From Candidatus Moraniibacteriota bacterium (lineage in GTDB: Bacteria > Patescibacteriota > Minisyncoccia > Moranbacterales > UBA11712), in the NCBI GenBank assembly GCA_030679895.1, contig JAUXSN010000055.1:1-58234 (forward strand): a DNA stretch of 58,234 bases. The letters are read 5' to 3'. The position numbers were made by a program, and so were the translations under genes. This document shows, piece by piece, positions 2,860 to 52,133 of this stretch (its first letter is position 1; every line of letters begins with the position of its first letter). The notes beneath the pieces were generated by a model. It ran no database searches, was not told the DNA's origin, and saw only the letters and a program-made list of their open reading frames with translations.

Positions 2860-3484
2860 ATTTCTTCCCCGCCCATCCGAACATATCTTTGAACGCGCCG
2901 CCGAGAAGATCGAGAATGGAAACATTGGGAGCGCCGGTATAGAACGCGAGCTTGTCCGACTTGATTTCGTTTCCCCATTTGTCGCGCGCGGTCACGGCAT
3001 ATGAATATGAAGTTGAAAAATTGAGGGGCGCGATCTCGACGCTGTGAAGAAATCCGTAGCCGTCCTCGGAAACCGTTTTCTCTTCCGCTTGTCCTTCCTT
3101 CGCATACGCGATTGAAGAAACGCACGGCTTGTTCGTTTTCCAGCTCAAAAGAAATTTCACCTGCTGGTCTGTTTTTGTCATGAGAAGTTCCGATTGCATA
3201 TTCAGAATTTCAGGAGCGACTGATTGTTCTCCCGACGGAACTGTGATCGCGTCCCCGCCGAACGTGATTTGCGGCGAGTGAAAATTCTGGCTGACGAAAG
3301 CTTGCGTAGCGAAATCGTTCTCCTCTTCGCCCAAAACTTTCCCGGCAGTTTTTTCGTTGGAAATAGTTGCAGCTGTTTCTTTTGTTCCGGTCTTTGTCGA
3401 ACGAAAAGATAAAATCATCATTGAAAAATATCCGATTGAAATAACCAATACCGCGAGTAAAATTATTTTTATTATTTTTTTCAT
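2858..3484 (-). CDS. Membrane-anchored hypothetical protein with a fibronectin type III-like beta domain
   Basis: N-terminal hydrophobic anchor (IILLAVLVISIGYFSMMIL); LSWKTNKP...HSVEIAPL...YSYAVTARDKWGN is an FN3-like pattern; start taken at MKKIIK. Confidence 0.7.
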   Translation of the reverse strand: MKKIIKIILLAVLVISIGYFSMMILSFRSTKTGTKETAATISNEKTAGKVLGEEENDFATQAFVSQNFHSPQITFGGDAITVPSGEQSVAPEILNMQSELLMTKTDQQVKFLLSWKTNKPCVSSIAYAKEGQAEEKTVSEDGYGFLHSVEIAPLNFSTSYSYAVTARDKWGNEIKSDKLAFYTGAPNVSILDLLGGAFKDMFGWAGKK

Positions 3485-3494
3485 ATTATTTGTT

Positions 3495-3644
3495 GAACTC
3501 AAAACTCAAACTGCAAAACGCAAAACCAAAGCGTAAAATTCAAAATTATCTTTTTTAAAATCAGTTTTGCGCTTTGCGTTTTCATTTGTTTGAAAATTGT
3601 GTCATTGGAAATTGAGAATTGATTGTAAATTGAAAATTGGAAAT
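3495..3644. repeat. Composite heptamer-repeat intergenic element
   Basis: caaaacgcaaaaccaaagcg...ttttgcgctttgcgtttt inverted pair, followed by aattgagaattg/aattgaaaattgg units like 30052-30180. Confidence 0.6.
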
Positions 3645-4850
3645 TTAGCGGGAGCGTAACGCTTCCAGCGGATCAAGCGCGCTCGCTCTTTTAGCCGGAC
3701 CGACGCCGGTCGCGAATCCGATAAAAATGGAAAACGCGATAATAAATCCCAAGAACCAAAACGGGTAGGCAAATAGATTCAGGCTTTTACCGCCAAAATA
3801 TTTCGCGGCGATATTGAAAATCAGATTGACAGTTTGTCCCGACGCGACGCCGAGGATTATTCCCGCGATCCCGCCGAAGAATCCCATCAGCGTTGATTCG
3901 ATGATAAACATAGAGAGAATATCCATTTTCGACGCGCCAATGGAACGCATAATTCCGATCTCGCGCGTCCGCTCAAGAAGCGCGACCGTCATCGTGTTAA
4001 ACATTCCGATTGATGAAACCGCGAGAGTGACAATGCCGAACAAACTAAGAACGATATTGACCACCCGGAACAGCTTGTTCACTTCGGCGACTGTTTCCGA
4101 AAGCGACGAAACAGAAAAGCCTTTTTGGGAAATCACGTCGCGCGCCGTGCTCATAACGTCGCCCGAATTGCATTTCACTTTCACCTTCGCGAATGGAATA
4201 TCCGCCGGAATGTTCAGCTCGTCTGCCACGGCATAGAATACCGTGTCCTCGCTTTCCGTGACGCCCGCAATCACATAGTCGCCCGCGTCGATATTCGCCC
4301 CGCCTGGCGAGGCTGGAAGCAGAGAAAAAGAAACTTTTTGCCCGACAAGATCCTTTGGATTCTTGCCGAATACTTTTCCAATGGCGGACGAGGCAAGAAT
4401 TTCTTTGGGATTTTTTTTGCTCGCCTCGCTGGAGCTTTGGCGAAGCGGGTCGAGCAATTTTCCGGCCGCGATTTTCAAGCCTTCGAGTTCAAGATAGCCG
4501 GGACTGGCGATCACCGCGCGCGCATCTGATCCCGTATCGCCGATTTTGAGCCTCGCGTTGAAATTATAGCTCGTTTCAACCCCATCCACCCCGTCAATTT
4601 TTTTTATCTCTTCAACTGCGGCCGCCGTGAGAAATTTTCCGTCCTGCTCATTCGGCGCGACATCAAGCGCCGTGAGCGCCCCCGACGATGTGATCGTCTG
4701 GAGGAGGGCGTTCTGAAGGCCGTATCCCAAAGAAACCAAAAACAAAATTGCTCCGAAACCGATCCCCATGCCCAAAACCGTAAGGGCTGTCCGCCCCCGC
4801 CGAGCCGTAAACATACGGGTAGAAAGTTTGAGTAAATCCTTAGTAGTCAT
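3645..4850 (-). CDS. ABC transporter permease, MacB/FtsX family
   Basis: RTALTVLGMGIG N-terminus, periplasmic domain, IGMFNTMTVALLERTREIGIMRSIGA, C-terminal PAKRASALDPLEALR. Confidence 0.92.
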   Translation of the reverse strand: MTTKDLLKLSTRMFTARRGRTALTVLGMGIGFGAILFLVSLGYGLQNALLQTITSSGALTALDVAPNEQDGKFLTAAAVEEIKKIDGVDGVETSYNFNARLKIGDTGSDARAVIASPGYLELEGLKIAAGKLLDPLRQSSSEASKKNPKEILASSAIGKVFGKNPKDLVGQKVSFSLLPASPGGANIDAGDYVIAGVTESEDTVFYAVADELNIPADIPFAKVKVKCNSGDVMSTARDVISQKGFSVSSLSETVAEVNKLFRVVNIVLSLFGIVTLAVSSIGMFNTMTVALLERTREIGIMRSIGASKMDILSMFIIESTLMGFFGGIAGIILGVASGQTVNLIFNIAAKYFGGKSLNLFAYPFWFLGFIIAFSIFIGFATGVGPAKRASALDPLEALRSR

Positions 4851-4852
4851 GA

Positions 4853-4892
4853 GAATCTCTACGAATTACTAATTTTGTACGAATATACGAAT
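4853..4892. repeat. Left terminal inverted repeat of the GxxExxY cassette
   Basis: gaatctctacgaattactaattttgtacgaatatacgaat is the near reverse complement of 5290-5330. Confidence 0.85.
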
Positions 4893-4898
4893 CAATGA

Positions 4899-5291
4899 TT
4901 ATCTTAGCTTTATGATTCTTTTGTATCTGATACCGCTTTTCGTGAAATGGATTAGCAAACCCAGTTTTAATTTTGTTGCTCTTAAATATGAATAAATTTG
5001 AGCAATATCTTTTTTGGAAAAATAATTTCTTTGTTTTATTTCAATGACCATTTTTCCGAAAACGAGAAAATCAAAATAATAAATTCATAAATCTTTATCC
5101 TTGTATCACAATTTCACCTGCAGCTGTTCTTTAAAATCTATCTTATTTTTCCTAAAGACTTCTGAAATTACTTTCTGATAAAATTTTTCTTTATGGCCAT
5201 ATCCAAACTCGTTGAAAACATAAAACACCAAACCAATTATTTCATAACATTCTTTCGCATAAATTAAATCTTTTCTTGTTTGCACATTCAT
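4899..5291 (-). pseudogene. GxxExxY protein gene with two in-frame TGA codons (5106-5108, 5085-5087)
   Basis: The same frame continues past both TGAs as YKDKDL*IYYFDFLVFGKMVIEIKQRN...YLRATKLKLGLLIHF...KRII to TAA at 4899; motif GHKEKFY; PD-(D/E)xK-like DF..EIK; 130 codons in total. Confidence 0.85.
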
Positions 5292-5330
5292 TCGTATATT
5301 CGTAATTGCTTCGTAATTCGTAGAGGATTC
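5290..5330. repeat. Right terminal inverted repeat of the GxxExxY cassette
   Basis: attcgtatattcgtaattgcttcgtaattcgtagaggattc. Confidence 0.85.
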
Positions 5331-6876
5331 ACATCGAATATCTCGCCAGCATTATAATTTCGAGTTCCCGCGCGATTTTTTTCGCCGTCCGGCGGTCAAG
5401 TCCGACTCCCCCCTTCACTATCGGCCGGTCGGCAAGATCAAGAAGCTCGTCCATCGACAGTTCGTTTTCAAGGCGCATTTTGATGTATTCGAGAAATTTA
5501 ATCTTTTCCATTTCACCGAGTTTCAAGTGAAAATTTTCATCCAGATATTGCATAGTATCTTCCGCTGATTTTTCAACATTCGCAAAGTCAATTTTTTTCA
5601 CCTGATCAAAAATTTGCGTGATTCCCTTCACTAATCGTTTGGCCTGATTATGATCCCACCCGGCTCCCCCCTTATTTTCCTCTTCTACAAGCCTTTTTTC
5701 AAAATCCTCAAGTGTGATCCCGCCCGCGATGAAGTCCTGAAAGATTTTCTTGGCGAGATCAAGCTGCACCTCGGGAATATGGAAAAAAATATGGGAGAAA
5801 ATCTGCTGGGCTTTGAATGGAACAAGGAGCGTCCCGACCTGATCGGGAGAAAAATTTCGAAAAGACCGCGTCAGAGCCAGAAGTTCCGGAGAAATATGTT
5901 CGCGCTTTCTTTCGGCGAGATCTTCTTTTTTCACCAGCTCGTATTCTTTGCCCAGATCCCAATCACCGCCCGCTTTTCCTTCCTTGAAAGAGCTCCAGGC
6001 TTTGCCAAGCTCTTCTTTTTTGACGAGTTCCCAGTCTTTATCCAGCTGTCCCTTCTTTTGAAGCTCCCAGGCTTTGCCCAGTATGCCCTCTTTGAATGAT
6101 TCCCATTCCTTCCCGATTTTTTGCTGTTCTTCGAGATATTCCTGATCGCCCTTGGCGCTAGGTGATTTTTTTTCGAGAACCTCGACGATCTTCGTGATCT
6201 TTCCGTCCTGCATATGGATTATCCGGTCGCCGTAAGCGAGATGTGACGGGTCATGGGTAACAAGAATGATGAGTTTCTTGTCAACTTCATTGAGCTCTTT
6301 CAAAATCGTGAGAACATTATAGGTGGCTTTGGAATCAAGGTTTCCCACCGGTTCGTCCGCGACGATGATCGCGGGACTGTTCATAAGCGAGCGGGCGATT
6401 GCCACTCTCTGCCTTTGCCCGCCGGAAAGATCCGCGGGAAATTTTTCGGCTTGCGCTTCGATCCCAAAACGTTTGAGAAAATTCATTCCGTCCTCTCTTC
6501 TTTTTGATGAACTGTCTCCGGAAAAAGCCCGCGGAAGACAGACATTGTCAATCACGGAAAGGGTGGAAACAAGATAAAATGACTGAAAAACCATCCCTAT
6601 TTTGTGGCGATGGAATTCCAGTTTTTCTTTTTCCGAAAAAGAAGTGAGATCGCGGCCGTCGATTTCTATTTTTCCGCCAGTCGGGCGAAGAAGTCCCGTG
6701 ATTATATTGAGGAGCGTCGATTTTCCGCAGCCGGAAGGACCGAAAAGAATGAGGTATTCGTGAGGATATATCTCAAGATCAATATTGTCCAAAATTCTGG
6801 CTTCATTGGCTTTTCCTTCATTGAAGACAGTGCTCAATTTTTCTATTTTTATCAGTGGCGCGGCTGTTGAGTTCAT
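5329..6876 (-). CDS. ABC transporter ATP-binding protein (LolD/MacB-like) with a long C-terminal extension
   Basis: Walker A GPSGCGKST, LSGGQRQR, Walker B IIVADEP, VTHD; about 280 extra C-terminal residues; start taken at MNSTAAP. Confidence 0.9.
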   Translation of the reverse strand: MNSTAAPLIKIEKLSTVFNEGKANEARILDNIDLEIYPHEYLILFGPSGCGKSTLLNIITGLLRPTGGKIEIDGRDLTSFSEKEKLEFHRHKIGMVFQSFYLVSTLSVIDNVCLPRAFSGDSSSKRREDGMNFLKRFGIEAQAEKFPADLSGGQRQRVAIARSLMNSPAIIVADEPVGNLDSKATYNVLTILKELNEVDKKLIILVTHDPSHLAYGDRIIHMQDGKITKIVEVLEKKSPSAKGDQEYLEEQQKIGKEWESFKEGILGKAWELQKKGQLDKDWELVKKEELGKAWSSFKEGKAGGDWDLGKEYELVKKEDLAERKREHISPELLALTRSFRNFSPDQVGTLLVPFKAQQIFSHIFFHIPEVQLDLAKKIFQDFIAGGITLEDFEKRLVEEENKGGAGWDHNQAKRLVKGITQIFDQVKKIDFANVEKSAEDTMQYLDENFHLKLGEMEKIKFLEYIKMRLENELSMDELLDLADRPIVKGGVGLDRRTAKKIARELEIIMLARYSM

Positions 6877-7011
6877 ATGAATATGGGAATTTTTTCTTTT
6901 TACAGTATAACATATATTGTTCCTATCCGCCTCATTGCGGCTATTTGACCCCTCGGACATAAATGGGCTAGAATAGAGCTAGTTATTGTTTGATTTTTAA
7001 AAATAAATATT

Positions 7012-18376: not shown

Positions 18377-20872
18377 TTAGATTACGAAATTTATCAATCT
18401 GTCTCTTACAAAAATTATTTTCTTAATCGAACTGTCTCCAATATATTTTACTATTTTATCCTGCGCCAGCGCCAATTCTTTCGCGTCTTTTTCCTTGACA
18501 CCCGATGCGACCTCGATCTGATCCCGCACCTTGCCGTTTATTTGGATAACAAGCATTATTTGTTCGTCTTTTATCAGCTTTGGATCATATTCCGGCCATT
18601 TTTCAAAGAATATAGATTTGTCGTGGCCTAGTTTTTCCCAAATTTCTTCAGCGATGTGAGGAACAAAGGGAGATAATAATTTAATGAACAGTGAACAGTG
18701 AACAGTGAACAGTCTTTCTTGTTTTTCAAGTTCATTTAGAAAGATCATCAATGCAGATATAGCGGTATTAAATCGGAAACTCTCTATATCTTCTGTGACT
18801 TTTTTAATAGTTTTGTGTAATAAAATTTCTAAATTATTGTTCACTGATCGCTGTTCGCTGATCACTGACTTCAACTTCCAGACTTTGTCCAGGAAGCGTC
18901 GCATCCCCACCACGCCTTTCGTGTTCCAGGCGATATTTTGCATGAACGGACCCATGAACATTTCGTAGAGCCGAATCGAATCCGCGCCGTATTCGAAAAT
19001 CACTTCATCGGGATTGATGACGTTTCCCCAGCGCTTGGACATTTTTCTTCCGTCTTCTCCTTGGATGAGTCCAACGTGCACCAATTTCTTGAAGGGTTCT
19101 TTTGTGGAGACCACTCCGATGTCGTATAAAAATTTGTGCCAGAAGCGGGCGTAAAGAAGATGCCGCGTCGCGTGTTCCGCTCCGCCGACATAGAGATCAA
19201 CGGGCATCCATTTTTTTTCTTCTGTCTTACCCACCAATTCTTTTTCGTTCTTTGGATCGATATAGCGAAGATAATACCAGGAAGATCCCGCCCATTGCGG
19301 CATCGTATTCGTCTCGCGTTTTCCCGGTCCCCCGCACTGCGGACATTCCGCATTCACCCATTCTTTGATGTTTGCCAGCGGCCCCTCCCCTGTTCCGGTC
19401 GGTTCGTATTTTTCCACTTTCGGAAGTTCAACCGGCAGATCTTTTTCCGGAACGCCGACCGTTCCGCATTTTTCGCAGTGAATGATCGGGATCGGCTCGC
19501 CCCAATATCTCTGCCGTGAAAAAACCCAATCCCGCATTTTATAATTAACTTTCTTCCCGCCGATCTTTTTCTTCTCCAGCCACGCAGCCATTTTTTCACG
19601 AGCTTTTTCGGAAGTGAGATCGGAATATTTTCCGGAGTTTACTAATTTTCCGTCACATATAAAGCAATCTGATTCGACCCGCAACTCCGTTCTGGCGCCA
19701 GCCGCAATATCTTCCAAATTTCTTGGAATATTTAATAATTCTTCAGGGAGGATTACTTTCTTGATCGGCAACTTATACTTTTTCGCAAACTCAAAATCCC
19801 GTTCGTCATGCGCCGGAACCGCCATCACCGCGCCGGTGCCATAATGGCCAAGAACGTAATCAGCGACAAATAGCGGTAATTCTTCATTATTAAAAGGATT
19901 AGTTACTCTTATACCTTGAAGTTCAACTCCCGTTTTTTCTTTTTGCAGATCAGTCCGCTCCAGATCGGTTTTGTTTTGCGCCTTGATAACATATTTCTCA
20001 ACTTCTTTGTAGTTTTTAATTTGATCTTTCAGTTTTTCGATAATTGGATGCTCCGGACCAACAACGCAGTATGTGCAACCAAAAATAGTATCCAAGCGAG
20101 TCGTAAAAACTTCGAGCATATTTGGAAGCTTAGCTTCCATTGTGGAAGCTAAGCTTCCATTAGTCACAATTGAAAATTTCACGATTGCTCCTTCGCTTCT
20201 TCCGATCCAGTTTTTTTGCTGGTCAACAATGGATTTTTCCCAGTCCAACTCTTCCCTGTCCAGATCTTCAAGCAGCCGATCGGCATAATCCGTCATTTTG
20301 AGCACCCATTGGCGCATTTTTTTCTGGACAACCTGCGTGCCACAGCGTTCGCAAAGGCCGTTTTCGAGATCCTCTAGAGCCAGTCCCGTTTGGCAGGAGG
20401 GGCACCAGTTGATCGGCTCGTCGGATTCAAAAGCCAGGCCTTTCTCAAACATCTTGAGAAAGATCCACTGCGTCCATTTATAATATTCCGGATCAGTTGT
20501 ATTTATTTCCCGGTCCCAGTCGTACGTGAAACCAAACAGCCCAAGCTGTTTTTTGAAAGTTTTGATGTTTTCTTTGACTGCCGCCTCGGGATGAATTTTA
20601 TTTTGGATGGCATAGTTCTCGGCCGGAAGACCAAAAGCGTCCCAGCCCATCGGATGAAGGACTGAAAACCCATTGAGCATCTTGAAGCGCGAAACGACAT
20701 CGGTCGCAATATATCCTTTGGGATGCCCGACATGAAGACCTGCTCCCGAAGGATAAGGAAACATATCGAGAGCATAGAATTTCTTTGGCTTCGAATAGTC
20801 CTTATATATACCACTTTCCGCCCATTTCTTCTGCCATTTCCGCTCGATTAATTTTGGATTATATTTCTTCAT
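18377..20872 (-). CDS. leuS: Leucine--tRNA ligase
   Basis: MFPYPSGAGLHVGH, GWDAFGLPAEN, KMSKR, VFTT editing domain; start taken at MKKYNP. Confidence 0.98.
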   Translation of the reverse strand: MKKYNPKLIERKWQKKWAESGIYKDYSKPKKFYALDMFPYPSGAGLHVGHPKGYIATDVVSRFKMLNGFSVLHPMGWDAFGLPAENYAIQNKIHPEAAVKENIKTFKKQLGLFGFTYDWDREINTTDPEYYKWTQWIFLKMFEKGLAFESDEPINWCPSCQTGLALEDLENGLCERCGTQVVQKKMRQWVLKMTDYADRLLEDLDREELDWEKSIVDQQKNWIGRSEGAIVKFSIVTNGSLASTMEAKLPNMLEVFTTRLDTIFGCTYCVVGPEHPIIEKLKDQIKNYKEVEKYVIKAQNKTDLERTDLQKEKTGVELQGIRVTNPFNNEELPLFVADYVLGHYGTGAVMAVPAHDERDFEFAKKYKLPIKKVILPEELLNIPRNLEDIAAGARTELRVESDCFICDGKLVNSGKYSDLTSEKAREKMAAWLEKKKIGGKKVNYKMRDWVFSRQRYWGEPIPIIHCEKCGTVGVPEKDLPVELPKVEKYEPTGTGEGPLANIKEWVNAECPQCGGPGKRETNTMPQWAGSSWYYLRYIDPKNEKELVGKTEEKKWMPVDLYVGGAEHATRHLLYARFWHKFLYDIGVVSTKEPFKKLVHVGLIQGEDGRKMSKRWGNVINPDEVIFEYGADSIRLYEMFMGPFMQNIAWNTKGVVGMRRFLDKVWKLKSVISEQRSVNNNLEILLHKTIKKVTEDIESFRFNTAISALMIFLNELEKQERLFTVHCSLFIKLLSPFVPHIAEEIWEKLGHDKSIFFEKWPEYDPKLIKDEQIMLVIQINGKVRDQIEVASGVKEKDAKELALAQDKIVKYIGDSSIKKIIFVRDRLINFVI
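18685..18712. repeat. (TGAACAG)4 heptamer array inside leuS
   Basis: Read directly; encodes LFTVHCSLF. Confidence 0.9.
18842..18869. repeat. Degenerate CACTGAT heptamer array inside leuS
   Basis: cactgat cgctgtt cgctgat cactgac; encodes SVISEQRSV. Confidence 0.75.
20123..20159. repeat. 37-bp paired-hairpin palindrome, copy 2 (in frame in leuS)
   Basis: tggaagcttagcttcca-ttg-tggaagctaagcttcca. Confidence 0.95.
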
Positions 20873-23976: not shown

Positions 23977-24008
23977 GATATATAGTAGGTTTAAAACTTA
24001 GCTCAAAT

Positions 24009-24105
24009 CTCAAAATTCAAAGCGTAAAGCCACAGCGCAAAGCGTAAAATTTTTTAGTCTTTAGCTTTGAGTTGTGGTTTTGAGTTTTGCGCTTTGCGTT
24101 TTGCG
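24009..24105. repeat. 97-bp heptamer-derived inverted-repeat element, copy A (after atpC)
   Basis: About 5 mismatches versus 29586-29682. Confidence 0.9.
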
Positions 24106-27019: not shown

Positions 27020-27024
27020 TTTTT

Positions 27025-27130
27025 CAGTGAACAGTGAACAGTGAACAGTGATCAAAAAATAATCAATGTTCTCAAATTCACTGTAGTAAAAAATAAAATT
27101 ACTGATCACTGATCGTTGATCACTGATCGT
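27025..27130. repeat. CAGTGAA / CACTGAT heptamer inverted-repeat element in the atpA-atpG spacer
   Basis: (cagtgaa)3cagtgat at 27025-27052 faces actgatcactgatcgttgatcactgatc at about 27101-27128. Confidence 0.8.
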
Positions 27131-28664
27131 TGCCGTACACTTCTTTATACTCTTCGATCGCTTTCTTGAGCGCGCTTTCCACTTCTTCCGTCAACTCTTT
27201 CTTCTCTTTGATCATCGCCAAAACGTCGCTCTTCATTTCTTTTATATATTCATGAAATTCTTTTTCCCATTTCTGGACATTTTCCACCGGCACATCGTCG
27301 AGATATCCGCTGGTCAAGGCGTATAAGATCGCCACCTGCTGCGCAACCGGCATCGGAACATATTGATCCTGCTTCAAAACCTCGACTGTCCGCTGGCCGC
27401 GCTCGATCTGTTTTCGTGTCGCTTCGTCAAGATCCGATCCAAATTGCGCAAAAGCCTCAAGTTCCCTGAACTGCGCAAGATCCAGCCGCAATTTCCCGGC
27501 CACCTTCTTCATTGCCTTGATCTGCGCGGCTGATCCTACCCGGGAGACGGAAAGACCGACGTTCAAGGCCGGTCGGATACCTTTATAGAACAGATCGGAT
27601 TCAAGATAGATCTGTCCGTCCGTGATGGAAATGACATTAGTCGGAATATATGCCGATACGTCGCCCGCTTGGGTTTCAATAATGGGAAGCGCGGTGATCG
27701 ATCCCCCGCCGAAATCTTTGGAAAGTTTTGCGCTGCGCTCCAAAAGCCTTGAATGGAGATAGAAAATATCTCCCGGATAAGCTTCCCGTCCCGGAGGACG
27801 CTTGAGAAGAAGCGACACTTGCCGGTACGCCCAGGCGTGTTTTGAAAGATCGTCATAAATAACGAGCACGTCCTTCCCTTGATCCATAAAATATTCTCCG
27901 ATGGCGCAACCCGCGTACGGCGCGATGAACGAAAGCGCGGCCGGATCAGATGCCCCAGCCACAACAACGATGGTATGGCTCATTGCTTCCCGCTTTTCAA
28001 GTTCGGCCACTATGCGCGCCACTTTTGATTCCTTTTGCCCGATAGCGACATAAATGCAAATGACATCTTCCGTTTTTTGGTTGATGATGGCGTCAATCGC
28101 CAGCGCCGTTTTCCCCGTTTGGCGGTCGCCGATGATGAGTTCTCGCTGTCCCCGTCCGATCGGAATCACTGAATCAATAGCCTTTATTCCGGTCTGGAGC
28201 GGCTGTTTCACCGACTCGCGCTCGATTACCCCCGCCGCGATTTTTTCGACCGGGTAAAACTTATCCGTTCTTATGTCTCCTTTTCCATCGACAGCCTGCC
28301 CAAGCGGATTCACCACTCGACCGATCATCGCTTCCCCTACGGGTACCGACAAAATTTTTCCGGTTGATTTCACCGTATCGCCTTCTTTTATTTTTTCATA
28401 TTCGCCCAAAATCATCACTCCGACTTGGTCTTCCTCTAAGTTTAAGGCAACACCAAAAACGGATTCGTTATTTTTTGTGTCAGTATTCGTTTTATTCGTG
28501 TTTACAAACTCCAGCATTTCACTCGCCATTGCGTCCGAAAGTCCGGAAACGCGCGCGATCCCGTCACCCACCTCGATCACGCGACCGACTTTCTCGGTCT
28601 TTGTTTCGGCTTTGAAATCTTCTATCTGTTTTTTTAGGGTCTCTACAATAAAATCTTTTGACAT
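27120..28664 (-). CDS. atpA: ATP synthase alpha subunit
   Basis: [18 protein letters not shown]-like [34 protein letters not shown]. Confidence 0.98.
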
Positions 28665-29567: not shown

Positions 29568-29585
29568 AGTATTTTTAGTTCAAAG

Positions 29586-29682
29586 CTCAAAATTCAAAGC
29601 GCAAAGCCACAGTGTAAAGCGTAAAGTTTTTTAGTTTTTAGCTTTGAGTTGTGGTTTTGAGTTTTGCGCTTTGCGTTTTGCG
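29586..29682. repeat. 97-bp heptamer-derived inverted-repeat element, copy B (after atpE)
   Basis: Near identical to 24009-24105. Confidence 0.9.
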
Positions 29683-29689
29683 CTTGAAA

Positions 29690-30180
<491 letters not shown>

Positions 30181-30182
30181 CG

Positions 30183-30935
30183 CTAGTGCGCCGCTTCTGT
30201 CGCCGCCATCTTGAAAAAAACCAGTGTCAGCATTGCAAATACGAGAGCTTGGATAAACCCGACAAACAGTTCGAGAAACAAAAACGGCAGAGGAACAAAA
30301 TACGGAACCAGAAATAGCATAACAGTGAGCAGTACCTCTCCCGCGAAAATATTCCCGAAGAGCCGGAAGGAAAACGAAATGAGTTTGGCGAATTCCGAAA
30401 TGAGCTCGAGAAGCCCAACAAAAGTTCCGACGAGATATGGCTTATGCAACGGGCTCACGAAAAACTTTCCCGCGTATTTCCTGAATCCGATCATTGCGAT
30501 CCCGAGGACTTGGGCGCTTATCACGCTTACCAACGCCAGGGCCAGCGTCAAGTTGAGGTCGGCCGCGCCGCTACGGATAAAGGGAACAAGGACTTGTTTT
30601 CCTTCCTCCATTTTGTTGAGACCGATCGTCCCGAGTCCCGGAACCACTTCCACCCAATTGGTGAGGATCACAAAAATAAAAATAGTGGCCACGATCGGAA
30701 AAAATTTTTTCGATTGCTTCCGATCCTGTGTCACGCTGTCCGCCAAATTTAAAAGGGCTTCCAGCACCGATTCGACAATATTTTGAAAGCCCTTAGGCAC
30801 TAAACTAATCCTATTTTTCAGTATATATGACGCGACGATGATAATCAAGCTGATGCAAAAAGTCACCACGAGCGTGTTCGTAACAGGAAAGGATCCGATG
30901 TGAAACAATGATTCAGCGGCAATTGAAATATCCAT
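30183..30935 (-). CDS. atpB: ATP synthase a subunit
   Basis: ADLNLTLALA, SFSFRLFGNIFAGE, ELFVGFIQALVF. Confidence 0.96.
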   Translation of the reverse strand: MDISIAAESLFHIGSFPVTNTLVVTFCISLIIIVASYILKNRISLVPKGFQNIVESVLEALLNLADSVTQDRKQSKKFFPIVATIFIFVILTNWVEVVPGLGTIGLNKMEEGKQVLVPFIRSGAADLNLTLALALVSVISAQVLGIAMIGFRKYAGKFFVSPLHKPYLVGTFVGLLELISEFAKLISFSFRLFGNIFAGEVLLTVMLFLVPYFVPLPFLFLELFVGFIQALVFAMLTLVFFKMAATEAAH

Positions 30936-49196: not shown

Positions 49197-52133
49197 TTAA
49201 ACCCTTTTGAGCCACACTTTGATAGCTTCCGCTTCCAGATCCAAAAGTTCGGAAATATCGGCGTCGGTTTTTTCGTCTTCCGTTTCTATCGCTCCCGTCG
49301 CCAGAACTTCCCGAGCTATCAAATCGCCGAATTTTTCAAAAATAGCGGTTCCCCCTTTATAGTACACATTTATCCTGTCGTCAACCTGGAATCCGGCATG
49401 TTTGCGAAGCTCTTGGATTCTTCTCACAATTTCGCGCGCCTCCCCTTCCAGCCGCAAATCATCCGAAATCGCCGTGTCGAGGCCGATCATCCAGTTTCCT
49501 TCTTTCTCGGTATAAATGCCGGCTTTCATTTCAACCGATCCGTAAAACTTGATTTCTTTTACGTTTACTTCGTCCTTTATCAGGTTCGCTAAATCTTCGT
49601 CCACCGGCTGATTGATTTGCAGCTCGGAAAGCGGCTGGCGGACTTTGATTCCCGCTTTCGCTCTCGCCGCCAGTCCCAGTTTCACAAACCGGCGCGTGAT
49701 CTGCATTTGCTCGTTGAGTTCCTTATCAATCAACTTTTCATTTTCTGCGGGAAAATTCGCCAAGTGAACAGAATCTTCTCCCGAGAGATTCTTATAGACT
49801 TCCTCCGCGACAAACGGCGTGAAGGGCGCCATCAGTTTCGAAAGCTCCGTTAAAACGTAGTGCAAAGTTTCATATGCCTGTTTTTTGTCCTCGTCATTCT
49901 CGCTTTTCCAGAATCTCTTCCGGCTCCGGCGGATATACCAATTGGAAAGATTATCAATAAACACCGGAAACAACCTTGCTGCTTTATTTAACTCATAATT
50001 CTCCATGTGCTGATTGACGTTTTTGATCAAGCTGTTCAGCTCTGAAATGATCCACTTGTCGAGCAAGTTCCCAAGGTCCGACCTTGAGACGTTCCCAAGG
50101 TCCGACCTTGGTTCGAACTTATCTATATTCGCGTAAAGCACGAAAAATGAATACGTATTCCAAAGCATCCGGAACATTCCTTTGAAAATATCTTTTAGAT
50201 CTTCATCGTTGAAGTTCAAATTTTCTCCTCCCATGAGGGGAGACTGCATCAGATAAAATCTAAAAGCATCGGCGCCGTATCGGTCGATCAGGATATTCGG
50301 ATCAGTGAAATTTCCAAGCGACTTCGACATCTTCTTTCCGTCGCTTCCGGCGATCGTTCCAGTCGTGACCGCGTTCAAGAAGCTTGACTTTCCAAAGAGA
50401 CCGACGGAAAGCACGTGAAGCGTATAAAACCAGCCCCTTGTTTGAGCAATATATTCGGAAATAAACTGAGCGGGAAATCTGTTCTTGAATTCTTCTTTAT
50501 TTTCAAAAGGATAATGAAATTCAGCAAATGGCATCGACCCCGATTCAACCCAGCAATCAAAAACATCCGATATTCTTTTCATCACTCCGCCGCACTTTTC
50601 GCAGGGAAAAGTTATCTCGTCAATCATCGGCCGATGATAGTCTTCGAGTCTCTTTCCGGATAGCTTTTCCAGTTCTCCAAACGACCCGATTATTTTCGCG
50701 TTGTTACATTCCAAAGCTTTGCGCTTTGAGCTTTGCGCTTTGAGCTTATTCTCGCACTCCCAAATCGGCATAGGCGTTCCCCAAAAACGGGAGCGGGAAA
50801 CATTCCAATCGGGAGCCGTTTCAAGACCATTCTTAAATCTTCCTTCTTTGAGATGCGCCGGATGCCAGTTAATTTTTTCATTTTCGTCAAGCAATTTTTT
50901 CTTGAGATCGGAAATCTTGATAAACCACGCCGGTTGAACCATGTATATGAGTTTCGTGTGGCAACGATAGCAAAACGGATAAGAATGAGAGATATTTTCT
51001 TTTTTAAAAACAAGGCCCTGTTCGGCGATATGCTTTAATATTTTAAAATTCGCTTCCCAGACATTTTCACCAGCCCATTTTCCATCTTTGAATTTTCCTT
51101 CGTCGTCCACATTTTCAATGATGGGTAAATTTTTTTCTTTTCGCGTTCGAAAGTCATCTTCCCCGAAAGCCGGAGCTATGTGCACAATTCCCGTTCCTTC
51201 CTCCAGACTTACAAAATCACCGGAGACTACCCGATAACCGTTTTTAATTTTTTGAGGAAAAATCGGTTGATAGATAAGATTAACCAAATCTTTTCCTGTC
51301 ATTTCTTTTTCTATTTTATAATCTCCACTGATAATTTCTAGCCTTTCTTTGGCTAGAATATATTTTTCTCCGTCTTGTTTTACCAGTGCATAGATTGCAT
51401 TCGGATTGACGGCGATCGCGACATTCCCCGGCAATGTCCAGGGAGTAGTCGTCCATACTAAAAATTTTGCGGCTTTAAAATCCTCCTCATCTTCGATTTT
51501 CAATTTGAAATATACAGAAGCGTCTTGTACATCACGATAGCTCGAATCCATAGCAATTTCAAAATTGGAAAGCGGCGTCGCGCAACGCGGGCAATAAAGA
51601 GAAATTCGAGAATCTTTATATACCAGTTTTTTATTGTGCAACTCTTTGAATCCCCACCAGACTGATTCCATAAAATCGTTGTCCATCGTCTTGTAGGAAT
51701 TGTCAAAATCTACCCAGCGCCCGATTCGGCGAATGGTTTTCCGCCATTCGTCCGCGAATTGCAGAACTGTATTTCTAGCCTCATCGTTGAATTTAGCGAT
51801 ATTTTTTTCGATGTCTTTTTTTCCTTTGTAGTCGAATTTTTTTTCAATAATATTTTCAATCGGCAGGCCGTGCGTATCCCATCCCCAGCGGCGCGGCACA
51901 TTATATCCCTTCATCGTCCAGTACCGAGGAACTACATCTTTCGAGGTCGAGGCTAAAAGATGGCCGTGGTGAGGCAGGCCCGTCGCGAACGGCGGACCGT
52001 CATAAAAAGAATAGAGCTCCGCATCCTTGCGGTTCTCCAAAGATTTTTCGAATATTTTATTCTCTTCCCAGAATTTGAGGATATTTTCCTCCATTTCAGG
52101 AAGGGATTGTTTTGGATCGACAGGTTTCAACAT
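49197..52133 (-). CDS. ileS: Isoleucine--tRNA ligase, type 2 (archaeal/eukaryote-like)
   Basis: FYDGPPFATGLPHHGH, WTTTPWTLP, QTRGWFYTL, KMSKS, no C-terminal FPG-type zinc finger. Confidence 0.97.
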   Translation of the reverse strand: MLKPVDPKQSLPEMEENILKFWEENKIFEKSLENRKDAELYSFYDGPPFATGLPHHGHLLASTSKDVVPRYWTMKGYNVPRRWGWDTHGLPIENIIEKKFDYKGKKDIEKNIAKFNDEARNTVLQFADEWRKTIRRIGRWVDFDNSYKTMDNDFMESVWWGFKELHNKKLVYKDSRISLYCPRCATPLSNFEIAMDSSYRDVQDASVYFKLKIEDEEDFKAAKFLVWTTTPWTLPGNVAIAVNPNAIYALVKQDGEKYILAKERLEIISGDYKIEKEMTGKDLVNLIYQPIFPQKIKNGYRVVSGDFVSLEEGTGIVHIAPAFGEDDFRTRKEKNLPIIENVDDEGKFKDGKWAGENVWEANFKILKHIAEQGLVFKKENISHSYPFCYRCHTKLIYMVQPAWFIKISDLKKKLLDENEKINWHPAHLKEGRFKNGLETAPDWNVSRSRFWGTPMPIWECENKLKAQSSKRKALECNNAKIIGSFGELEKLSGKRLEDYHRPMIDEITFPCEKCGGVMKRISDVFDCWVESGSMPFAEFHYPFENKEEFKNRFPAQFISEYIAQTRGWFYTLHVLSVGLFGKSSFLNAVTTGTIAGSDGKKMSKSLGNFTDPNILIDRYGADAFRFYLMQSPLMGGENLNFNDEDLKDIFKGMFRMLWNTYSFFVLYANIDKFEPRSDLGNVSRSDLGNLLDKWIISELNSLIKNVNQHMENYELNKAARLFPVFIDNLSNWYIRRSRKRFWKSENDEDKKQAYETLHYVLTELSKLMAPFTPFVAEEVYKNLSGEDSVHLANFPAENEKLIDKELNEQMQITRRFVKLGLAARAKAGIKVRQPLSELQINQPVDEDLANLIKDEVNVKEIKFYGSVEMKAGIYTEKEGNWMIGLDTAISDDLRLEGEAREIVRRIQELRKHAGFQVDDRINVYYKGGTAIFEKFGDLIAREVLATGAIETEDEKTDADISELLDLEAEAIKVWLKRV
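50067..50110. repeat. 24-bp-period direct repeat of a CCG-triloop hairpin inside ileS
   Basis: gttcccaaggtccgaccttg twice; encodes RSDLGNVSRSDLGN. Confidence 0.9.
50717..50747. repeat. CTTTGCG/CTTTGAG heptamer array inside ileS
   Basis: Encodes KLKAQSSKRKA; 20-mer ctttgcgctttgagcttatt is identical to intergenic 2843-2862. Confidence 0.85.

Follow-up and report, generated by a model that had tools for sequence, protein, structure and literature searches.

The stretch analysed here (the window) is a 58,234-nucleotide (nt) contig, JAUXSN010000055.1, from Candidatus Moraniibacteriota, a member of the candidate phyla radiation (CPR). On its minus strand, the genes for an ATP-binding cassette (ABC) ATPase and a permease are separated by a 478-nt element (4851-5328) in which two arms of inverted repeat sequence enclose the remains of a gene of the GxxExxY nuclease family. 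The element takes up the whole gap between the ATPase stop codon and the permease start codon. It is very probably a decayed copy of a mobile hairpin cassette that is of the same type as the intervening sequences (IVSs) of 23S rRNA and lies at an mRNA junction. An earlier sequence-only reading had offered two proposals for this locus, a nuclease-bearing cassette that targets operon junctions and an intervening sequence that acts at the mRNA level. Both have gained support, and they prove to describe a single phenomenon: the nearest relatives lack the element, its arms and open reading frame (ORF) recur at many unrelated stop/start junctions alongside multi-copy cargo-less hairpins, hairpins with the same arms occupy loops of 23S rRNA helices 25 and 45 in another locus (L117), and the 23S IVS of Coxiella has the same architecture.

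The evidence for insertion comes from relatives with the same pair of genes. L001 and L002 (permease identity 88% and 81%, respectively) have the arrangement ATPase-TAA-T-ATG-permease, with a 1-nt spacer and no hairpin, while L025 has a 15-nt spacer, also with no hairpin. Because the closest relatives lack both the arms and the ORF, these are a single insertion, and the nuclease gene with its arms entered a 1-nt stop/start junction (TAA-T-ATG) as a whole unit. Among 77 orthologous junctions surveyed, the spacer is 20 nt or less in 45, 21-60 nt in 14 and 61-250 nt in 17, and about 12 of these last 17 are strong, cargo-less hairpins built of other heptamers. One further junction has a 445-nt spacer (L051 3544-3972, Moraniibacteriota) that contains a four-helix-bundle ORF similar to the 23S IVS protein between arms of TAGCTTC units. 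The junction of L004 (50% permease identity) contains a GxxExxY cassette homologous to that of the window, with a near-identical 3' arm against the permease ATG. Compact, empty-hairpin and loaded states, which the earlier reading had proposed to compare, all occur at the ATPase/permease junction. The element has both terminal inverted repeats (TIRs) and insertion polymorphism between relatives, as miniature inverted-repeat transposable elements (MITEs) and TIR transposons do.

The same unit is found at other sites. The three closest cargos in a large protein database (P0001-3; 82, 78 and 76% amino acid [aa] identity) have near-identical arms and unrelated flanks, with a pilB-like gene upstream of one, a prgI-like gene downstream of another and, for the last, a BNR protein gene and frr on its two sides. 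In a four-way alignment of these copies with that of the window, homology begins at about CTCTACGAAT and stops at about CGTAGAGAATCTCA, with unrelated sequence on either side. The four copies have nonsynonymous divergence (dN) values of 0.10-0.14 and saturated synonymous sites. Their arms are identical at 64-68 of 75 nt, and so are constrained as strongly as the non-synonymous sites. This combination indicates strong constraint on protein and arm sequence alike.

Anatomy of the inserted element

The features of the element and its boundaries are as follows.

4851..5328, minus strand: inserted element, whole; occupies the entire ATPase/permease spacer (1 nt in L001 and L002 and 15 nt in L025)
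5285..5328, minus strand: 5' arm (in gene orientation); four heptamers, TACGAAT 5322-5316, TACGAAG 5315-5309, TACGAAT 5304-5298 and TACGAAT 5296-5290
4851..4897, minus strand: 3' arm; plus-strand units TACGAAT 4860-4866, TACTAAT 4867-4873, TACGAAT 4878-4884 and TACGAAT 4886-4892
4899..5291, minus strand: GxxExxY (PD-(D/E)xK, PDDEXK_3) pseudogene of 130 codons; motifs GHKEKFY, FDFLV and IEIK still readable
5106..5108, minus strand: first in-frame TGA; K or R here in relatives
5085..5087, minus strand: second in-frame TGA; invariant Gly of the family (G69 of alignment A2)
5329..5331, minus strand: ABC ATPase stop codon TGA; overlaps the stem base; TAA in relatives without the element
4848..4850, minus strand: MacB/FtsX permease start codon; 6 nt past the stem core and partly paired in the predicted RNA fold

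All genes surrounding the element are on the minus strand. The ATPase (5329-6960) has a match to PF00005 (E-value: 3e-35), and the permease (3645-4850) is of the MacB/FtsX type, with matches to PF02687 and PF12704. The sequence-only reading had described the arms as near reverse complements around a GxxExxY ORF, adjoining the ATPase stop and the permease start, with the inner arm providing the ATG of the cargo. This description holds. A repeat finder places the inverted repeat at 4857-4897/5285-5325 (41-nt arms, 83% complementary, 387 nt between them); if one bulge is allowed, pairing reaches 4852/5328 and takes in the ATPase stop and the bases preceding the permease ATG (4850-4848). It is the second-longest inverted repeat within 1.5 kb across the window. 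Each arm is made up of two heptamers, a spacer and two more heptamers (TACGAAT or, as variants, TACGAAG and TACTAAT), and all six occurrences of TACGAAT in the window are inside these two arms. The innermost heptamer of the 5' arm shares bases with the cargo ATG (5291-5289; acgaATG), and the cargo TAA is one base away from the 3' arm. Local alignment of the 5' flank of the ORF with the reverse complement of its 3' flank gives a score of 53, compared to 15.2 +/- 3.6 (99th percentile 27) in a control set of 1080 ORFs taken from the same loci. A search of Rfam gave no match to the arms or to any other part of the window.

With its stops masked, the cargo ORF matches TIGR04256 (GxxExxY; 95.6 bits, cut-off 35, E-value: 2e-27) and PF13366 (PDDEXK_3; 92.8 bits, cut-off 22, E-value: 2e-26). 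The nuclease core is present (GHKEKFY, FDFLV, IEIK), with E35, D74, E84 and K86 invariant in alignment A2. The family assignment of the earlier reading is correct, but two in-frame TGA codons (5106-5108 and 5085-5087) had been overlooked, and the window copy lacks the intact frame of the family. TGA closes 8 of the 37 long ORFs in the window, the neighbouring ATPase among them, which rules out recoding of TGA (code 25 or 4). Given this usage, and given that relatives have K or R at the first position and an invariant Gly at the second, these codons are plain nonsense mutations. With TGA in normal use as a stop, the cargo is a pseudogene, a recent one and a dead member of its family, in which the two nonsense codons arose after insertion. 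No frameshift is present, and dN between this copy and relatives is not above that of the relatives among themselves.

The AlphaFold model of the closest intact homologue (pLDDT 88.7) has a minimal PD-(D/E)xK fold. The nearest solved structures to this model are Cas4 SSO0001, lambda-exonuclease-like enzymes, archaeal Hjc resolvases and tRNA-splicing endonucleases; a sequence search for a solved structure of a close relative returned only chance-level Csn2 matches. This 130-aa nuclease is the sole gene of the element, which encodes no recognized transposase (DDE, HUH, serine or tyrosine). A phage or defence origin of the cargo was considered and rejected, as it has no match in PADLOC, PHROG or viral contigs.

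Other parts of the window also contain hairpins. Those listed by the sequence-only reading as similar to the element (2769, 3495, 24009, 27025, 29586, 30052 and 36100) exist and are heptamer-built, but they are not copies of its arms, as their units are CAAAGCG, CAGTGAA, TTGAAAA and TTCGAAT. Two 108-nt hairpins of CAAAGCG/CAAAACT units (23998-24105 and 29575-29682) are 93.5% identical, and one of them lies in the spacer beside an atpE-like (ATP synthase c-subunit) gene. Related units occur at 2817-2855, 3563-3582 and 50716-50750. The CAAAGCG/CAAAACT hairpins make up another family that is present in multiple copies in this genome. The hairpin at 27020-27135 pairs (CAGTGAA)n with (TGATCAC/TGATCGT)n, and a CAGTGAA run is found again at 18685-18713. 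Arms of AATTTCT/TTTTCAA units are present in the atp spacer of the window (30045-30185), around a four-helix-bundle ORF in L098 (1481-1813) and, as an empty hairpin, at the L067 ABC junction (3870-4000), which suggests that other arm families likewise have loaded and empty forms. Separately, the ABC ATPase has a C-terminal extension of approximately 290 aa past the ATPase domain. This extension is conserved in relatives and contains repeated G-K-x-W-E/D-L motifs (GKEWESF, GKAWELQ, DKDWELV, GKAWSSF and GGDWDLG).

Loaded and cargo-less elements in other genomes

GxxExxY relatives of the cargo were collected in two scans (18 and 80 loci, 43-68% aa identity), with ORF ends assigned by simple rules. 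Inverted repeats could be scored for 15 of the first 18 homologues, all of which are at or above the 99th percentile of the controls, and for 78 loci of the second set. About 90 homologues have the same layout, almost all of them in metagenome-assembled genomes (MAGs) of the Patescibacteria (CPR) type, plus one in a Planctomycetota MAG. In every locus with intact flanks, this layout is host stop, 0-4 nt, (G/T)CTACGAAWTACGAA, 3-5 nt, TACGAATRTACGAA, ATG...stop, mirror arm, 0-10 nt, host start. Flank scores of 14 homologues range from 25 to 71, and 64 of the 78 scorable loci of the second set are at or above the control 99th percentile, the failures being mostly broken ORFs or contig ends. The highest-scoring "controls" turned out to be further cassettes, with four-helix-bundle ORFs (the "23S rRNA IVS protein" family) inside other heptamer arms.

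In this family, a same-strand host ORF is found upstream in 57 of 69 loci (ending a median of 37 nt before the cargo ATG) and downstream in 65 of 69 (starting a median of 39 nt past the stop of the cargo). An arm most commonly has 4 unit cores, and the innermost core is within -1 to +3 nt of the cargo ATG in 38 of 67 elements. Where the unit varies (TACTAAT, TACAAAT, TACAGAT or TACGGAT), both arms change together and the variants track cargo clades. At the variable unit position, 137 of 192 pairs are complementary compared to 88.5 expected, with 39 double changes (not phylogeny-corrected). The GxxExxY genes of these relatives are intact and under purifying selection.

The insertion sites are diverse. 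In 46 of 67 elements, the nearest cargo relative is at a different junction. Certain junctions recur, namely rpsG|fusA (15 of 69, with several cargo clades), hydrogenase small|large subunit (5-6) and pheS|pheT (4). The Planctomycetota MAG copy has a GC content of 35% within flanks of 52-58%, and several MAGs have two to three loaded copies per genome. Of 56 host stop codons that abut the element, 31 are TAG, compared to 65 of 207 long ORFs of the same loci (69 related loci, L221-L300 and others); the 5' end of the element may supply or select a TAG stop.

Some loci have more complex arrangements. In L085, a single Moraniibacteriota contig, three cassettes lie within 3 kb (2501-2887, 3263-3634 and 4871-5221); one has a GxxExxY ORF and two have four-helix-bundle ORFs, each with a separate heptamer arm family. 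Tandem duplicated 5' arms are present upstream of loaded cassettes in L090 (1424-1499), L091 (955-1024), L086 (1625-1727) and L132 (1246-1357), including one hairpin nested in another. These may be nested or abortive insertions for which hairpin loops or arms served as targets. In L020, a small GIY-YIG nuclease ORF (2933-3193, 86 aa) directly follows the permease stop, with a weak flanking inverted repeat (score 27).

Elements with the same arms and no cargo are also widespread. An exact-pattern scan for the arm identified at least 119 stretches, mostly from CPR with some from Bacteroidota, Planctomycetota and Omnitrophota. Among the matches listed, loop lengths fall into two classes, approximately 29 hairpins with loops of 3-50 nt and loaded elements with loops of 375-411 nt, and solo arms are found as well; several genomes in this set have many near-identical cargo-less hairpins set between stop and start codons. 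A Nomurabacteria MAG (MFVF01) has at least six near-identical cargo-less hairpins and L117 has at least three. At the rpsG|fusA hot spot, no cargo-less TACGAAT hairpins were found in the sampled loci. The Nostoc matches (L119, L141, L161 and L174) are pure tandem (TACGAAT)n or (TACGAAC/TACGAAT)n arrays with no partner arm, and they resemble the heptamer short tandemly repeated repetitive (STRR) sequences of heterocystous cyanobacteria.

L117 connects these hairpins to rRNA. Three hairpins with the same TACGAAT arms are found in one rRNA operon of this locus, one in the terminal loop of 23S helix 25 (at 583/584 of the model), one in the helix 45 loop (at 1218/1219) and one in the 23S-5S spacer. 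Helix 25 and helix 45 are the classical 23S IVS sites. The 23S rRNA gene of L117 (2078-6187, minus strand) spans 4110 nt, compared to a 2925-position model. Its two TACGAAT hairpins of approximately 95 nt are each nested in a longer extra stem, and roughly 900 nt of further insertions are implied. The window copy lies between two protein genes, outside helices 25 and 45, and so does not have the location that defines an IVS. Taken with the loaded copies at operon junctions, the L117 hairpins suggest that 23S-type intervening sequences also colonize ordinary operons.

Alternatives and a proposed mechanism

Several points weigh against the interpretation of the window element as a mobile IVS-type cassette. 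It is the only TACGAAT element in the window. No target-site duplication or target motif was discernible, the one signal being the TAG excess at the adjoining host stop noted above. No direct repeat is visible at the ends of the four close copies or of the wider set, and the available empty alleles are too diverged. A very close empty allele was also not found: the permease was unmatched in an exact-match index, and a 22-mer taken from the end of the ATPase had 0 matches in a metagenome scan. To our knowledge, a 130-aa single-domain nuclease is not among the known transposase types. In L109 (Bacteroidota), TACGAAT-type arms surround a four-helix-bundle ORF, and therefore the nuclease may not be the enzyme that the arms need. 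Stem mismatches are equally divided between G.U and A.C (14 vs 14), so selection on the sense RNA is not specifically favoured over selection at the DNA level. The counts given above were taken over MAG loci that are not phylogenetically independent. The taxonomic labels of the MAGs are also unreliable, and several of them, such as "Bdellovibrionales", "Gammaproteobacteria" and "Woesearchaeota", are probably wrong. Identical or near-identical contigs with differing labels (L093 and L094, Jorgensenbacteria and 'Woesearchaeota'; L090 and L091, Patescibacteria and 'Woesearchaeota') indicate cross-binning, and the archaeal labels are therefore not to be trusted.

The L109 arrangement would also fit a different explanation, in which MITE-like arms are moved by an unrelated host or insertion sequence enzyme, by replication slippage or by recombination, and the GxxExxY gene is mere cargo (an addiction or defence nuclease, for example). 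Other arm families with four-helix-bundle ORFs (L051, L085, L098 and L135), the large number of cargo-less hairpins and a minimal nuclease fold that corresponds to no known transposase are consistent with this. Such an explanation is nevertheless unlikely. Arm variants follow cargo clades across differing insertion sites, the arm sequence is conserved as strongly as the protein, and the ORF fits the loop exactly. Furthermore, the absence of a PADLOC, PHROG or viral-contig match argues against a defence or phage passenger, and no transposase adjoins any element.

The ORF might instead be a homing endonuclease gene of the free-standing kind, whose spread by way of flanking homology is confined to homologous junctions in related genomes, with the arms acting as an RNA insulator or processing signal, but this is far less probable. 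Cargos that are 76-82% identical and have the same arms are found at unrelated junctions, most nearest neighbours (46 of 67) are at other sites, several cargo clades share the rpsG|fusA junction, and cargo-less copies are scattered within genomes. These observations outweigh those that homing would predict, which are hot spots between highly conserved genes (rpsG|fusA, pheS|pheT and the hydrogenase subunits), presence/absence polymorphism and decayed copies as in a homing cycle, and the slightly greater similarity of same-site copies (57% vs 51%). The abundance of heptamer-built intergenic hairpins in this genome and its relatives could recall an ordinary regulatory hairpin of this operon (an attenuator or RNA stabilizer) with a small ORF captured in its loop, but this is already contradicted and scarcely credible, as the three closest relatives have no hairpin at the junction, the same arms accompany the ORF to unrelated loci, homology ends where the arms end and TACGAAT is found nowhere else in the window.

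For the mobile cassette, expression signals and RNA folding can be considered together. The element is co-oriented with the host operon and, as judged from its sequence, dependent on the transcription of that operon. An own promoter or terminator was rejected, since nothing promoter-like or terminator-like is present on the sense strand, where counts equal those of shuffles. Provision of a Shine-Dalgarno (SD) sequence by the right arm end was also ruled out, as SD-like motifs are rare (2 of 37 window ORFs and 2 of 62 downstream host genes). Many genes in the window are only 1-5 nt apart; with SD-like motifs almost absent, translation initiation in this lineage is probably by coupling or on unstructured leaders. 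In both the minimum free energy and centroid structures predicted, the arms pair, and the fold has the entire cargo between them (dG of -108 compared to -86 in shuffles, z = -4.2).

The mechanism proposed for the cassette has two levels. At the RNA level, the arms would pair in the operon transcript to form a stem of approximately 45 bp with an internal loop, bringing the ATPase stop and the permease start together. By analogy with 23S rRNA IVSs, this stem would be a substrate for RNase III, and once it is cut the insert would be lost and the two cistrons would be independent of each other. Pairing of the arms in the operon transcript followed by IVS-like RNase III cleavage is, on the strength of this analogy, rather likely. 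Because continuity of the RNA is not needed between cistrons or between rRNA domains, the insert would be nearly neutral, and this low cost would explain why such elements survive only at rRNA helix tips, in rRNA spacers and at cistron junctions. As the cargo ATG is buried in the stem, translation of the cargo would be limited to the time before the 3' arm is transcribed.

At the DNA level, the GxxExxY nuclease would recognize its own arms, either as heptamer arrays or as a hairpin, and so promote the spread of the element. This could occur in one of two ways. The nuclease might move the whole hairpin unit or, alternatively, it might cut cargo-less hairpins, with repair then copying the ORF into them using the arms as homology. 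Cargo-less hairpins would be the non-autonomous partners of the nuclease element. This part of the model is quite possible, and we advance it with some reserve. It is weakened by the missing target duplication, by the 14:14 split of stem mismatches and by the L109 element, whose similar arms surround a four-helix-bundle ORF.

Relation to known elements

The closest counterparts are the ORF-bearing 23S IVSs of Coxiella, Leptospira, Brucella and Xanthomonas (S23p/four-helix-bundle ORF). They likewise have a stem of terminal repeats around approximately 430-480 nt, a sense-oriented ORF of approximately 125 aa that fills the loop and tandem heptamers directly before its start. Both kinds of element lack an own promoter or good SD sequence, occur sporadically and in many cases have an ORF in decay. 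They differ in that the window element lies between protein cistrons and has a GxxExxY PD-(D/E)xK cargo, whereas IVSs lie in rRNA and encode a four-helix-bundle protein. The Coxiella IVS has a 28-bp terminal stem, a length of 428-444 nt and tandem GACAGAT heptamers immediately 5' of the ORF ATG; it is excised by RNase III, and its ORF is decaying and has no usable SD sequence (PMC4990558). A survey of CPR rRNA insertions describes short IVS-like inserts at the helix 25/45 sites and ORFs for IVS proteins, with no inserts outside rRNA and no mention of GxxExxY (PMC11270868). Our literature search found no description of GxxExxY-bearing hairpin elements or of IVS-type elements outside rRNA or in mRNA junctions.

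Other bacterial repeats share part of this organization. The Correia elements of Neisseria and the enterobacterial ERIC/IRU elements are short, TIR-bounded, multi-copy repeats beside genes that are co-transcribed, fold into hairpins and have no transposase of their own; Correia hairpins are reported RNase III substrates. The cargo-less hairpins described here are similarly multi-copy and without their own transposase. Correia and ERIC/IRU elements, however, have no ORF, long unique TIRs and a TA target duplication, whereas the arms here are heptamer arrays and a duplication is not discernible. In the REPIN-RAYT system, a single gene lies between inverted copies of a short hairpin repeat that is also dispersed gene-free in intergenic regions. 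The RAYT protein is a Y1 HUH transposase, and its gene is usually single-copy and vertically inherited. The relation between loaded and empty forms is similar, but the cassettes described here encode a PD-(D/E)xK (PDDEXK_3) nuclease, are present in several copies per genome and change sites.

Two more distant comparisons can be made. Eukaryotic foldback transposons have long inverted arms of short tandem subrepeats and sometimes an ORF in the loop. Their arms are built alike, but these transposons belong to eukaryotes, are far larger and move by a mechanism that is unrelated or unknown. Homing endonuclease genes of the free-standing type, such as seg and mob of phage T4, are small nuclease genes between conserved genes, with presence/absence polymorphism and decay after fixation. 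They have no terminal inverted repeats and a fixed homologous site, whereas here one lineage is found at unrelated sites.

The interest of the window element rests on the family that it reveals, as this copy itself is dead. Elements with the same arms occur in three contexts, namely at dozens of different operon junctions with a nuclease gene as cargo, as multi-copy cargo-less hairpins and at classical rRNA IVS sites. We tentatively suggest, as a possibility that falls somewhat short of likely, that an unrecognized class of hairpin elements is present in multiple phyla and inserts where cuts in the transcript are harmless (rRNA helix tips and spacers and operon stop/start junctions), with GxxExxY nucleases, and perhaps also the four-helix-bundle '23S IVS proteins', as its mobility genes. 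Classical 23S IVSs and many heptamer hairpins of CPR would be members or relics of this class. The three contexts together offer a testable model, in which the nuclease acts on the heptamer arms, the insert is cleared from the RNA by RNase III and loaded forms coexist with empty ones. They also provide a candidate role for the widespread GxxExxY family (PF13366/TIGR04256) and may explain some of the odd intergenic hairpins of CPR genomes that are built of heptamers. For annotation, small ORFs flanked by inverted repeats within operons of CPR MAGs are insertions and not operon members. The IVSs of 23S rRNA have been known for more than 30 years, with their origin, spread and ORF function unexplained; if such a class of hairpin elements exists, it would settle the question of IVS origin, which has been open since 1990.

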